DNA from: a virus
Lineage: Duplodnaviria; Heunggongvirae; Uroviricota; Caudoviricetes
Reading direction: 5' to 3' (one strand)
IMG/VR virus record: IMGVR_UViG_646311923_000009
Length of the DNA: 25,667 bases
Shown: positions 21,001 to 25,667 of the stretch, in pieces
How the letters are laid out: every line of letters starts with the position of its first letter
Numbering within the stretch: the stretch's first letter is position 1
Position numbers: made by a program

Positions 21001-24000
21001 ATGCGGCTAAGCGCACGCGGAACAGTTAAAACCAAAAACAGTGTTATGGGTGGATTCTCTGTATCCGGCGTTAATTGTTAACTGGTTAACGTCACCTGGA
21101 GGCACCAGGCACTGCATCACAAAATTCATTGTTGAGGACGCGATAATGGAAACGTTATTACCAAACGTTAATACGTCTGAAGGTTGTTTTGATATTGGAG
21201 TTCTGCTCAGTAACCGGGAGTTTACTGAAGATGCCATTAAGATGAGAAAATATGAACCTTATCTTCTTAATGATAATTCCATACTTTCCAGAATTGCCCT
21301 TCTTGAACTTGGTATTATCGGAGAACAGCAGTGACTTCAGCGTTTGCACTGATAATGACCGTTTTTCTTATAACGGGTGAGCCGCAGAATGTGATTACCG
21401 GAATTTATTACAGTAAGTCATCCTGCATTCAGGTAAGGGACGAACAAAAAATCCCCGGTGAATGCCTCCCGTTAAAAAAAGTATCGCTGTACCTGAATAA
21501 CGAAACACCGGCTGGATAACCCGCCAGCCATATTAACGCCATACCAACGGATTAAAAATGCCAGCAATGGCAGGAATTTGTTCATCCTTAAAATGGTTAT
21601 GAGGTTTATCAATGAACGCTGATAAAGAAGAAATTGCACTATATTACGAAGCCAAAAATGACAAAGTCAGAAAACGCCTTGGGATTAAAGGTGGTTTTTA
21701 CTGGCGCACAGCAAAAAAATTATCGGTTGCAATATCACGTGGTGTTGCTGCAATGGACGATGCCGGATTTGACGAAGAGGATTTTAAAAAACCCATCCGC
21801 GTCCATTTACCCGTTGTGAATGACCTTCCACCGGAAGGTGTGTTTGATACTGAATTCTGCAACCGATACGAAAAAGGCGGAGAAGATGGTATCACAATGA
21901 TACTTATCGCGCCCTCTGTTCCGGACAAACCAGCCAGTACTGACAATACCAACGTCAACGGCGAAGACATGGCTAAGATTGAGGAGAATATGCTTCTTCC
22001 GGTTTCAGGTCAGATTCTGCCTGTTCGCTGGCTGGCGCAACACAACAGCGAAAAACCGCTCACGCACGTTTCACTGGACAAACTGCGCGCATTACATAAC
22101 GCACAGGATGAAAAACTTCCCGCCGTTACCGCGCTGGCCATCTCAAATAAAGCAGTGCAACTCGAACCGCTGGAGCTTCGGGATTTGTACAAACTGGTGC
22201 GAGACACTGACAAAGTTTTCCCCGCCCCCGTAAATTCGGACCTGGGACTGATGACCTCTTTTATCGAAGCATACCTGGGCGCTGACTACACCGATCGCGG
22301 TCTGCTTACAAAAGAGTGGATGAAAGGAAATCGTGTTTCACGCATCAGCCGCACGCCATCCGGCGCTAACGCTGGCGGCGGCATTCTTACCGATCGCGGC
22401 GAAGGTTTTGTCCACGATGATGCGTCAGTGGCGCGTGACGTAGCCACTGGCGTACTGGCCCGTTCAATGGACGTGGATATTTATAACCTTCATCCCGCGC
22501 ACGCTAAACGCATTGAGGAAATTATCGCTGAAAATAAACCGCCATTTTCTGTGTTTTTCAGCAAATTCATCACCATGCCGGGCCACAAGGATTACTCCCG
22601 CGCCATCGTGGTTGCGTCCGTGAAAGAAGCACCAATTGGTATAGAGGCTACTCCCCACCGTGTCACCGAATACCTGAATAAGGTGCTGACTGAAACCGAT
22701 CATGCCACCCCTGATCCGGAAATCGTGGATATTGCCTGTGGTCGCTCCTCTGCCCCGATGCCGCAGCGTGTAACAAAAGAAGGAAAACAGGATGATGAAG
22801 AAAAACCGCAGCCATCTGGCGCAATGGCAGATGAACAGGCAACGACTGAAGCAGTGGAACCGGATACAACTGAACATAATCAGGACACGCAGTCGATGGA
22901 TGCTCAGCCACAGATAAATTCTGTTGATGCGAAATATCAGAAACTGCGTGCAGAACTCCATGAAGCCAAGAAAAACATTCCACCCAAAAATCCTGTCGAT
23001 GCAGATAAATTACTGGCTGCTTCTCGAGGAGAATTTGTTGAAGGGATTAGCGACCCGAATGATCCAAAATGGGTGAAGGGGATCCAGAGTCGCGATGATG
23101 ATGACCAGAATCAGGATAAAGCGGAACAAAACAGCCCAAATGCGTTACAAAACGAGCCAAAAACAAAACAACCTGAACCAGTAGTGCAACAAGAACCAGA
23201 AAAAGTTTGCACCACATGTGGTCAGACCGATGGCGGCAACTGCCCTGATTGTGGAGCGGTAATGGGTGACGCAACCTACCAAGAGACATTCAACGAAGAA
23301 AGCCAGGATGAAGCCCGGAAAAAAAATCCGGAGGAAATGGAAAATGCCGTGCTCCCGAATAAGCAATGCACCGAAGGCGATCAACATGCCAATGGCAATA
23401 ATGAAACAGGCGAGACAGCAAATCCCTTAATTACGGTGAACGGTCATCACGTTATCACATCCACCAGCAGGACGTGTGACCATCTAATGATCGACCTTAA
23501 AACCATGGGAAAAAATCCTGATGCCCCGATTATCTCAATAGGTGCAATATTTTTCGATCCGCAAACCGGAGATATGGGACCGGAATTTAGTAAGACTATC
23601 GATCTGGAAACTGCTGGCGGAGTCATTGATCGGGACACCATTAAACGGTGGCTTAAGCAATCACGCGAAGCGCAATCTGCCATTATGACCGATGAAATCC
23701 CGTTAGATGATGCACTGTTACAATTGCGGGAATTTATCGACGAAAACTCCGGTGAATTTTTTGTTCAGGTCTGGGGAAATGGAGCCAACTTCGACAACAC
23801 GATTTTGCGCCGTTCATACGAACGGCAGGGGATCCCCTGCCCGTGGCGTTACTACAACGATCGCGATGTACGCACAATCGTTGAGCTGGGGAAAGCCATA
23901 GACTTCGATGTCAGAACTGCTATCCCATTCGAAGGTGAGCGCCATAATGCACTTGATGACGCCCGTTATCAGGCAAAATACGTTTCAGCTATCTGGAAAA

Positions 24001-25667
24001 AACTGATCCCGAGTCAGGCTGATTTTTAATGTTCAACCGTCGTCGGTTGCAATTGGTATTCTGCAACCGGCGTTCATCTGATGTAAGAGATAAAGAATCG
24101 ATGAGCGAAGTAATCATGATCGTCTCTCCTGGCAAATGGGTATCCGAAGAGCAGTTAATTGCACTTAAAGGAATCAAAAAGGGAACGCTAAAAAAAGCCA
24201 GGGAAAAATCGTTTATGGAAGGAAGGGAATATAAGCATGTCGCTCATGACGGTATGCCATGGGATAACAGTCCATGCTTTTACAACCTGGAAGAAATTGA
24301 TCGCTGGATTGAGCGCCAGGCATCTGCAAGACCAAGACGTCATCTTGCTTGACTAAAAGCAACACGAACCAATGAGAGAAGCTGAAATGAAATATCCGAC
24401 AGGCGTGGAAAACCATGGAGGGAAATTACGTATCTGGTTTGTTTATAAAGGTGTAAGAGTCCGGGAAAATCTTGGGGTTCCTGACACAGCAAAAAACAGG
24501 CGCATTGCAGGTGAGCTACGCGCCTCTGTTTGTTACGCAATAAAAACTGGCGCTTTCGACTATGCAAAACAGTTTCCCGCCTCACACAATCTGGAAAAAT
24601 TTGGTGAGGCCCGACAAGATTTAACCATAAAAGAACTGGCTGAAAAATTTCTGGCACTGAAAGAAACTGAAGTCGCAAAAACGTCACTCAACACGTACCG
24701 TGCCGTCATCAAAAATATTCTGAGCATAATCGGTGAAAAAAATCTTGCATCATCGATTAATAAAGAAAAATTGCTGGCGGTACGTAAAGAGTTACTGACT
24801 GGATACCAGATCCCCAAAAGTAACTATATTGTTACACAACCAGGGAGATCGGCTGTTACCGTAAATAATTACATGACAAATCTTTACGCCGTGTTCCAGT
24901 TTGGTGTTGATAACGGTTATCTGGCAAACAATCCATTTAAGGGGATCTCACCATTAAAGGAGTCGAGAACCATCCCGGATCCACTTTCGCGGGAGGAGTT
25001 TATCCGCCTTATTGACGCGTGCAGAAATCAGCAAGCCAAAAATTTATGGTGTGTTTCCGTTTATACTGGGATTCGCCCTGGTGAACTGTGTGCGCTTGGA
25101 TGGGAAGATATAGATCTGAAAAATGGAACAATGATAATCAGAAGAAATCTGGCAAAAGACCGTTTTACAGTACCAAAAACACAGGCGGGAACCAATCGTG
25201 TGATTCACCTTATTAATCCCGCAATCGACGCTCTCCGGAGTCAGATGGCACTAACGAGACTGAGCAAAGAGCATATCATCGATGTTCACCTCAGAGAATT
25301 CGGCAGAACAGAGAAACAAAAATGTACCTTTGTTTTTCAACCTGAAGTGTCAGCGAAAGTAAAAAATTATGGTGACCATTTTACCGTTGACTCAATAAGG
25401 CAGATGTGGGACGCAGCGGTAAAGCGTGCCGGAATCCGCCATCGCAAATCGTATCAGTCGAGACACACTTATGCCTGCTGGTCGTTAACAGCAGGAGCTA
25501 ACCCGGCATTCATTGCAAACCAGATGGGCCATGCAGATGCGCAAATGGTGTTTCAGGTGTACGGGAAATGGATGTCAGAAAATAATAATGCGCAGGTAAC
25601 GCTGTTAAATACACAGTTAAGCGAGTTTGCCCCAACCATGCCCCATAACGAAGCGATGAAAAGTTAA

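Follow-up and report, generated by a model that had tools for sequence, protein, structure and literature searches.

A rare Glu-to-Lys allele in the active site of a RecE/DexA-like prophage exonuclease of Escherichia coli

Exonucleases of the DEDDh type are characterized by three motifs, with the Asp and Glu of motif I, the Asp of motif II, and the Asp of motif III binding two Mg2+ ions, and with the His of motif III serving as general base. Enzymes in which the motif I Glu is substituted lose their activity or retain very little of it, as exemplified by E357 of the Klenow enzyme, E14 of the Pol III epsilon subunit, and E25 of RNase T. A domain of this type forms the C-terminus of an 805-amino-acid (aa) protein encoded by the E. 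coli prophage DNA of IMG/VR record IMGVR_UViG_646311923_000009, a stretch of 25,667 nucleotides (nt) that is referred to below, in its full length, as the window. In this protein, the motif I Glu is replaced by a Lys. The gene is a complete open reading frame (ORF) at positions 21612-24029 (all coordinates are those of the window, on the + strand unless otherwise stated). Its product corresponds to RefSeq WP_000990639.1, named 'exonuclease', and combines a region resembling the RecE N-terminus with a DexA/Rv2179c-like DEDDh domain. An earlier note, made from the sequence alone, had proposed three possibilities for the unusual motif: inactivation of the nuclease by a single G-to-A change, a non-canonical active site, or a wrong assignment of the motif. 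We put at about three in four the chance that the window copy is a recent loss-of-function missense allele, neutral or nearly so and drifting in decaying prophages, in which catalysis would be absent or nearly so.

The closest solved structure, both by sequence (E 1.7e-5) and by fold (Foldseek E 1e-10), is that of exodeoxyribonuclease A from phage T4 (DexA; PDB 8KEL/8KEN). DexA is a 3'-5' DNA exonuclease, and PMC12153337 lists an equivalent set of catalytic residues for DexA and epsilon. The same paper describes EcD, an E. coli homologue of DexA ('HREX') reported to act against T4 by digesting DNA containing 5-hydroxymethylcytosine (5hmC), and in which all catalytic residues are conserved (PMC12153337). 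DexA and the window domain have in common the DEDDh layout, a 'T-I-x-W-W' segment, and motifs II and III, the motif I of DexA reading D-x-E-T-x-G. A number of differences can nevertheless be noted. Whereas DexA and EcD stand on their own, with roughly 180-230 aa and all catalytic residues present, the window domain is the C-terminus of a far longer protein, shares about 20% identity with DexA, and harbors an Arg at the equivalent of DexA W67 besides the Lys at the position of the motif I Glu. With K630 in place of the catalytic Glu, it does not have the full residue set of an HREX-type enzyme. The Trp that DexA uses for 5hmC recognition, W152, aligns to Tyr748 (Thr in some alleles), and the alignment ends before DexA D169. 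Identity of the window domain with EcD was rejected, since the primers given in PMC12153337 show a different N-terminus (MIDTET) and a different C-terminus; to judge from its MIDTET start, EcD belongs to a different subfamily. The protein matched none of the PADLOC defence models, and a defence role for the family would be a lead rather than a finding.

At the level of Pfam families, the window domain belongs with Rv2179c from Mycobacterium tuberculosis, a 3'-5' exoribonuclease and the founder of PF16473. This bacterial protein stands alone and is an RNase in which the DEDDh set is complete. The relation is distant, since Rv2179c was not found among the PDB sequence matches at E values up to 1. 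Literature searches returned nothing specific on ydfE or the exonuclease of prophage Qin, and no paper on prophage homologues within the literature on Rv2179c.

By genomic position, the gene resembles that of RecE (exonuclease VIII) from the Rac prophage (K-12 b1350), both lying in the early left operon, upstream of xis and int. In Rac, however, recT follows recE, whereas no recT follows the window gene: xis and int come directly after it, and the annotation of its prophage contains no recT, bet, or erf, in agreement with the earlier note, which had noted the lack of a recT/bet-like partner. Their absence is no puzzle, because the nuclease module, a 3'-5' DEDDh domain, differs in type from the 5'-3' recombination exonucleases such as RecE and lambda Exo. 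The very same slot, with the order dicB-DUF1482-exonuclease-xis-int, is occupied by Glu-type alleles of the gene in E. coli ATCC 8739 (at rspB), in phage HannyBb, and in the PPompW phages. Their C-terminal domains are 96-99% identical to that of the window at the DNA level over most of the length, but they have GAA at codon 630 and TGG at codon 679 where the window has AAA and CGG.

The assignment of the DEDDh domain and of its motifs draws on profile, sequence, and fold comparisons. In a Pfam profile search, aa 624-795 of the ORF (23481-23996) matched positions 2-177 of the 177 of PF16473 (Rv2179c-like), with an E value of 7.7e-63. Within this domain, motif I reads MIDLKTMG (aa 626-633; 23487-23510), with D628 retained and with codon AAA (23499-23501) encoding Lys630 in the column of the catalytic Glu. 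Motif II reads NGANFD (aa 723-728; 23778-23795) and motif III HNALDDA (aa 778-784; 23943-23963). A PDB sequence search aligned LMIDLKTMG to FIIDFETMG of T4 DexA (entries 8kel/8ken). An AlphaFold2 model of aa 601-805, built from 39 homologues with a mean pLDDT (predicted local distance difference test score) of 82.8, was compared with the PDB using Foldseek; DexA was the top match, and next came RNase T, a Cas-associated DnaQ domain, and oligoribonuclease/REXO2. Because these three approaches agree, the motif I assignment is right and Lys630 does stand in the catalytic Glu column, as the earlier note had read it; its fallback of a misplaced motif is thereby ruled out. Its motifs II and III hold as well. 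The Asp of motif II (D728) and the H-x4-D of motif III (H778 and D783) are in place, and only the D-x-E of motif I is broken, with D628 present and a Lys at position 630. As far as its residues tell, the protein is a member of the DEDDh family by descent, yet not one that has the catalytic set of a working enzyme.

Which of the two residues, Glu or Lys, is carried by homologues at this column was the check put forward by the earlier note. Mapping of 120 homologous protein clusters onto the query gave 99 that cover motif I. Residue 630 is a Glu in 97 of these and a Lys in two: P0001, which is identical to the window protein, and P0003. In the alignment of 39 sequences, D628, D728, H778, and D783 are invariant, and the Glu at position 630 is nearly so. 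At the DNA level, all the Glu-type relatives that were fetched have GAA against AAA in the window, a difference of one G-to-A transition at gene position 1888. The evidence favours the first of the three possibilities, in which this transition would have inactivated the nuclease. As a side observation, the Asp of motif II is itself replaced in two other clusters, by Glu in P0011 (D728E, NGANFE), which also has R679, and by Asn in P0051 (D728N, NGANFN); occasional alleles with a damaged active site therefore recur in the population of this prophage gene.

The distribution of the Lys allele was surveyed in complete E. coli genomes, using 61 nt centred on codon 630. This stretch was found in 3678 of 5426 genomes (5527 places), and its exact Lys version in 25 of the 3678 (0.7%). 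Most of the other copies are 1-3 bases off, and the G of GAA is among the differences in every sequence examined. The stretch is also present in 18 deposited phage or prophage records, all without the Lys version, and phage HannyBb, checked directly, reads MIDLETMG. The gene family itself is carried by most E. coli genomes, frequently more than once, with a median of 2 and up to 9 places per genome (7 in strain 2011C-4251).

Two contexts of the Lys allele were recognized. The first is a prophage at the Qin site (rspB), as in the window; in 16 genomes, its gene matches that of the window from end to end at 99% identity or more. The second is a different prophage, located at potC, with another integrase, another excisionase, and an N-terminus of the YdfE type. 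Over about 210 nt, the Lys alleles from both are nearly identical, and they have in common 1823C, 1841-42TT, 1888A, and 1920T relative to the nearest Glu alleles, while the flanks of the two groups match different Glu alleles. This common haplotype between differing flanks argues for a single mutational origin followed by recombination, not for recurrence; independent emergence of E630K in two prophage types, which would have been a sign of selection, was rejected on the same grounds. The window gene is itself a mosaic: its first 1600 nt or so are 99-100% identical to a Glu allele from O55:H7, whose C-terminal domain is only about 80% identical.

The state of the host prophages was judged from one fully examined copy of each type, the window for the first and strain DLI.5a for the second. 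The window's prophage is a defective remnant. It extends from a truncated ydfJ to rspB, over about 24 kb, without terminase, head, or tail genes. IS3 (an insertion sequence, IS) and transposase fragments take the place of all that would lie from the effector region to a truncated lysis cassette, and nleG7, a terB-like gene, ydfC, and fimbrial genes are frameshifted or interrupted. Degradation is heavy in the potC-site prophage of DLI.5a too, where IS5 and IS4 have inserted and the terminase and tail genes are truncated. Among the Lys copies that were checked individually, one is split by IS1, one by IS3, and two are annotated as frameshifted. An excess of disruption in Lys over Glu alleles was considered and rejected, the counts taken from annotation names (about 4 of 25 for Lys and about 3 of 35 for Glu) not differing significantly and two of the four disrupted Lys copies being possible assembly errors.

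Besides Lys630, the window's allele has several other changes. Codon 679 (CGG; 23646-23648) encodes an Arg at a position that is a Trp in 105 of 116 clusters and a Phe in 5, and that aligns to DexA W67. According to the supplement legend of PMC12153337, this Trp is equated with W96 of REXO2 and listed among the active-site residues; residue 679 is a putative substrate-contact position. All four combinations of residues 630 and 679 exist, namely E+W, E+R (P0002, P0008, and P0011), K+W (P0003), and K+R (the window), and W679R was for this reason rejected as a change coupled to E630K or compensating for it. In Lys alleles of the potC type, Arg679 is encoded by AGG and not by the CGG of the window. 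More broadly, the Trp-to-Arg polymorphism at this position is widespread and involves two different Arg codons. The window's allele also carries A767V, as well as a Lys at position 796 (23997-23999) that is found only in this allele, in a column where conservation of Gln across the family reaches 95% or more. Two linker changes, K608T and E614V, were rejected as specific to the Lys allele, T608 and V614 also occurring in Glu alleles.

Homology, the assignment of the column, the rarity of the allele, its common haplotype, and the defective prophages around it are all observations, from which the following history can be proposed. One GAA-to-AAA transition swapped the motif I Glu, one of four acidic ligands of the two catalytic Mg2+ ions, for a Lys. 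The domain should still fold, but the metal site would now hold a cationic side chain, at the expense of most or all of the exonuclease activity; it is this positive charge that leads us to read the protein as inactive or nearly so. The change arose once; homologous recombination then moved it to two or more prophage backbones, and the Lys allele persists in prophages that are themselves decaying. Some of the data on selection point the same way. Between divergent Glu alleles of the domain, the ratio of non-synonymous to synonymous substitution rates (dN/dS) is about 0.1, so that the normal enzyme is under purifying selection, and a count of five non-synonymous to three synonymous differences between the window and the nearest Glu allele suggests relaxed constraint.

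A number of points weigh against this loss-of-function reading. Loss of activity and neutrality, its two central elements, are what we infer. The count of five to three comes from very few sites and is confounded by recombination. Only 2 of 64 highly conserved columns are changed in the window's allele, which therefore does not clearly bear the marks of constraint relaxed over a long time. Most of the genomes with the Lys allele have an intact ORF, and the allele has come through several recombination events. Lastly, the two annotated frameshifts are possibly assembly errors; in WL1277, the adjacent rspB carries a frameshift annotation as well.

Among the alternatives, the one that survives best, although we consider it unlikely, is that the protein is catalytically dead but has been retained, whether for binding 3' ends of DNA or RNA, for a function of its RecE-like N-terminus, or for a dominant-negative role on Glu-type paralogues residing in the same cell. 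Such retention would fit a full-length ORF in most of the 25 Lys-allele genomes and the movement of the allele by recombination into two prophage types, where it occurs with either W679 or R679. A dominant-negative role, more specifically, would have targets in the several family copies per genome and a means of action in the oligomeric state of DexA-family enzymes, which function as dimers or tetramers whose subunits supply residues to one another. Against it stand the 0.7% frequency of the allele, its absence from the deposited phage genomes, and its occurrence in degraded prophages, where insertions of IS elements into it are tolerated. No sign of selection is seen here, and a neutral allele only a few recombinations old would look alike. 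A stronger version, in which Lys630, together with Arg679 in the window, represents a selected conversion to a catalytically silent 3'-end-binding protein instead of decay, appears more doubtful still. If it were true, two new positive charges would have been placed in the pocket for metal binding and base stacking, and the protein would act by capping the ends of nucleic acids or by poisoning oligomers of Glu-type paralogues from co-resident prophages or superinfecting phages.

That the enzyme is still active through a non-canonical site seems very unlikely. D628, D728, H778, and D783 being intact, the general base and all but one of the four acidic ligands are still present, and the missing contribution could in principle come from a carboxylate of Glu666 or from Lys630 itself in place of a metal ion. 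Glu666 belongs to a D-L-E-T sequence (aa 664-667; 23601-23612), the DLETAG segment beginning 34 residues past K630, which the earlier note had pointed out as lying in an atypical position. This segment varies freely in relatives with a normal motif I, where it reads DLDTAG, DMGTCG, SLVDAG, SLESAG, or DLKTAG, and the PDB sequence alignment places D-L-K-S of DexA opposite it, with a Lys at the third residue. Because that third residue can be D, G, V, K, or S in relatives with a normal motif I, its Glu is not selected as a catalytic residue, and the D-L-E-T sequence was rejected both as the true motif I and as a replacement for it. Moreover, P0003, the other cluster with the Lys allele, has DLDTAG there, and the conserved Trp679 is lost as well in the window's allele. 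We know of no DEDD exonuclease that works with a Lys at the position of the motif I Glu. Finally, a sequencing error or a true motif I elsewhere can be dismissed, because the same 61-nt context recurs in 25 independent complete genomes and profile, PDB, and fold comparisons all place motif I at aa 626-633.

The remainder of the protein, in which the earlier note had recognized no domain, proved to be a RecE N-terminal region. Residues 58-607 (21783-23432) are 72% identical to aa 50-591 of RecE from Rac, over 550 aa. The RecE equivalog model NF007259 of NCBIfam aligns to aa 1-608 and scores 1022 bits, under its cut-off of 1269 bits because the C-terminus differs from that of RecE; Pfam PF06630 also matches the N-terminal part. 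A PDB search returned no solved structure for the N-terminal 600 aa. Similarity to RecE stops beyond RecE residue 591, and the crystallised nuclease domain of RecE (3h4r) covers residues 605-866, so that the N-terminal part of RecE is present while its C-terminal PD-(D/E)XK 5'-3' nuclease domain is not. By these comparisons, the protein is a RecE-N-terminus::DexA-like chimera, in which a DEDDh 3'-5' domain has replaced the 5'-3' PD-(D/E)XK domain of RecE at the domain boundary. Just ahead of the nuclease module, the linker region harbors a CxxC-x7-CxxC motif (C533, C536, C544, and C547; 23208-23252) that was read from the RecE alignment and is conserved in RecE (CNACGQTGGDNCPDCG); it may form a zinc ribbon, metal binding being a prediction.

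Proteins of this chimeric type are common in Qin-type lambdoid prophages, directly upstream of xis-int. In other prophages, the same C-terminal domain is fused to a second, unrelated N-terminus of the YdfE-like type. The K-12 pseudogene ydfE (Qin locus 5079-5999) consists of the first 256 codons of this non-RecE type, cut by IS2; this remnant and the N-terminus of the intact HannyBb gene are 100% identical. Relatives of RecE in which no nuclease domain can be recognised have also been reported, with no known role given (PMC12315714). Because the swap of nucleases falls exactly at the RecE domain boundary and reverses polarity, it suggests that the N-terminal 600 aa or so of RecE are an autonomous delivery or targeting module compatible with nucleases of opposite polarity.

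The window is identical (100%) to sequences in genomes of Shiga toxin-producing E. coli of types O103:H2, O45:H2, and O121. Its gene order, from a dicA-like repressor gene through ydfA, ydfC, the DicF small RNA (sRNA), dicB, DUF1482, the exonuclease gene, xis, and int to rspB, is the arrangement of the cryptic prophage Qin of K-12, at the same chromosomal site. The DicF gene (20920-20971; Rfam RF00039, 77 bits) lies upstream of dicB as it does in Qin, and ydfC, which separates ydfA from DicF, carries a frameshift annotation in the identical genome. The dicB and DUF1482 (ydfD-like) genes (21146-21519) come immediately before the exonuclease gene and are part of the leftward early operon module that is also seen in Qin. 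Immediately downstream are the excisionase gene (24101-24352) and then the integrase gene (24372-25667), which has 431 codons and ends with its stop codon on the final triplet of the window; rspB is next in the genome. At the other end (1-7000), the prophage starts with the truncated ydfJ (ORF 1-1284, - strand), followed by a DinI-like gene, the frameshifted nleG7 effector gene, and then the IS3 and transposase fragments. Rfam matches in between, all on the - strand, are the ALIL frameshift pseudoknot of an IS3 element (5669-5785), the sRNA STnc100 (9655-9821), downstream of the Q antiterminator region, and the sok antitoxin RNA (13827-13976), which adjoins hokD. The adhesin gene paa (AcfC family) is found beside the fimbrial pseudogene, at about 14168-14926.

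Taken as a whole, the feature is real yet ordinary: it is a rare and probably null missense allele of a prophage exonuclease that is widespread, annotated, and experimentally uncharacterised. The Lys630/Glu630 pair nevertheless offers a natural control, probably catalytically dead against wild type, for RecE-N-terminus::DexA-like proteins. The architecture is the more interesting by-product, with the N-terminal scaffold of RecE bearing nuclease modules of opposite polarity in different prophages. The idea that this scaffold is a module in its own right is a testable proposal on the long-unexplained N-terminus of RecE.

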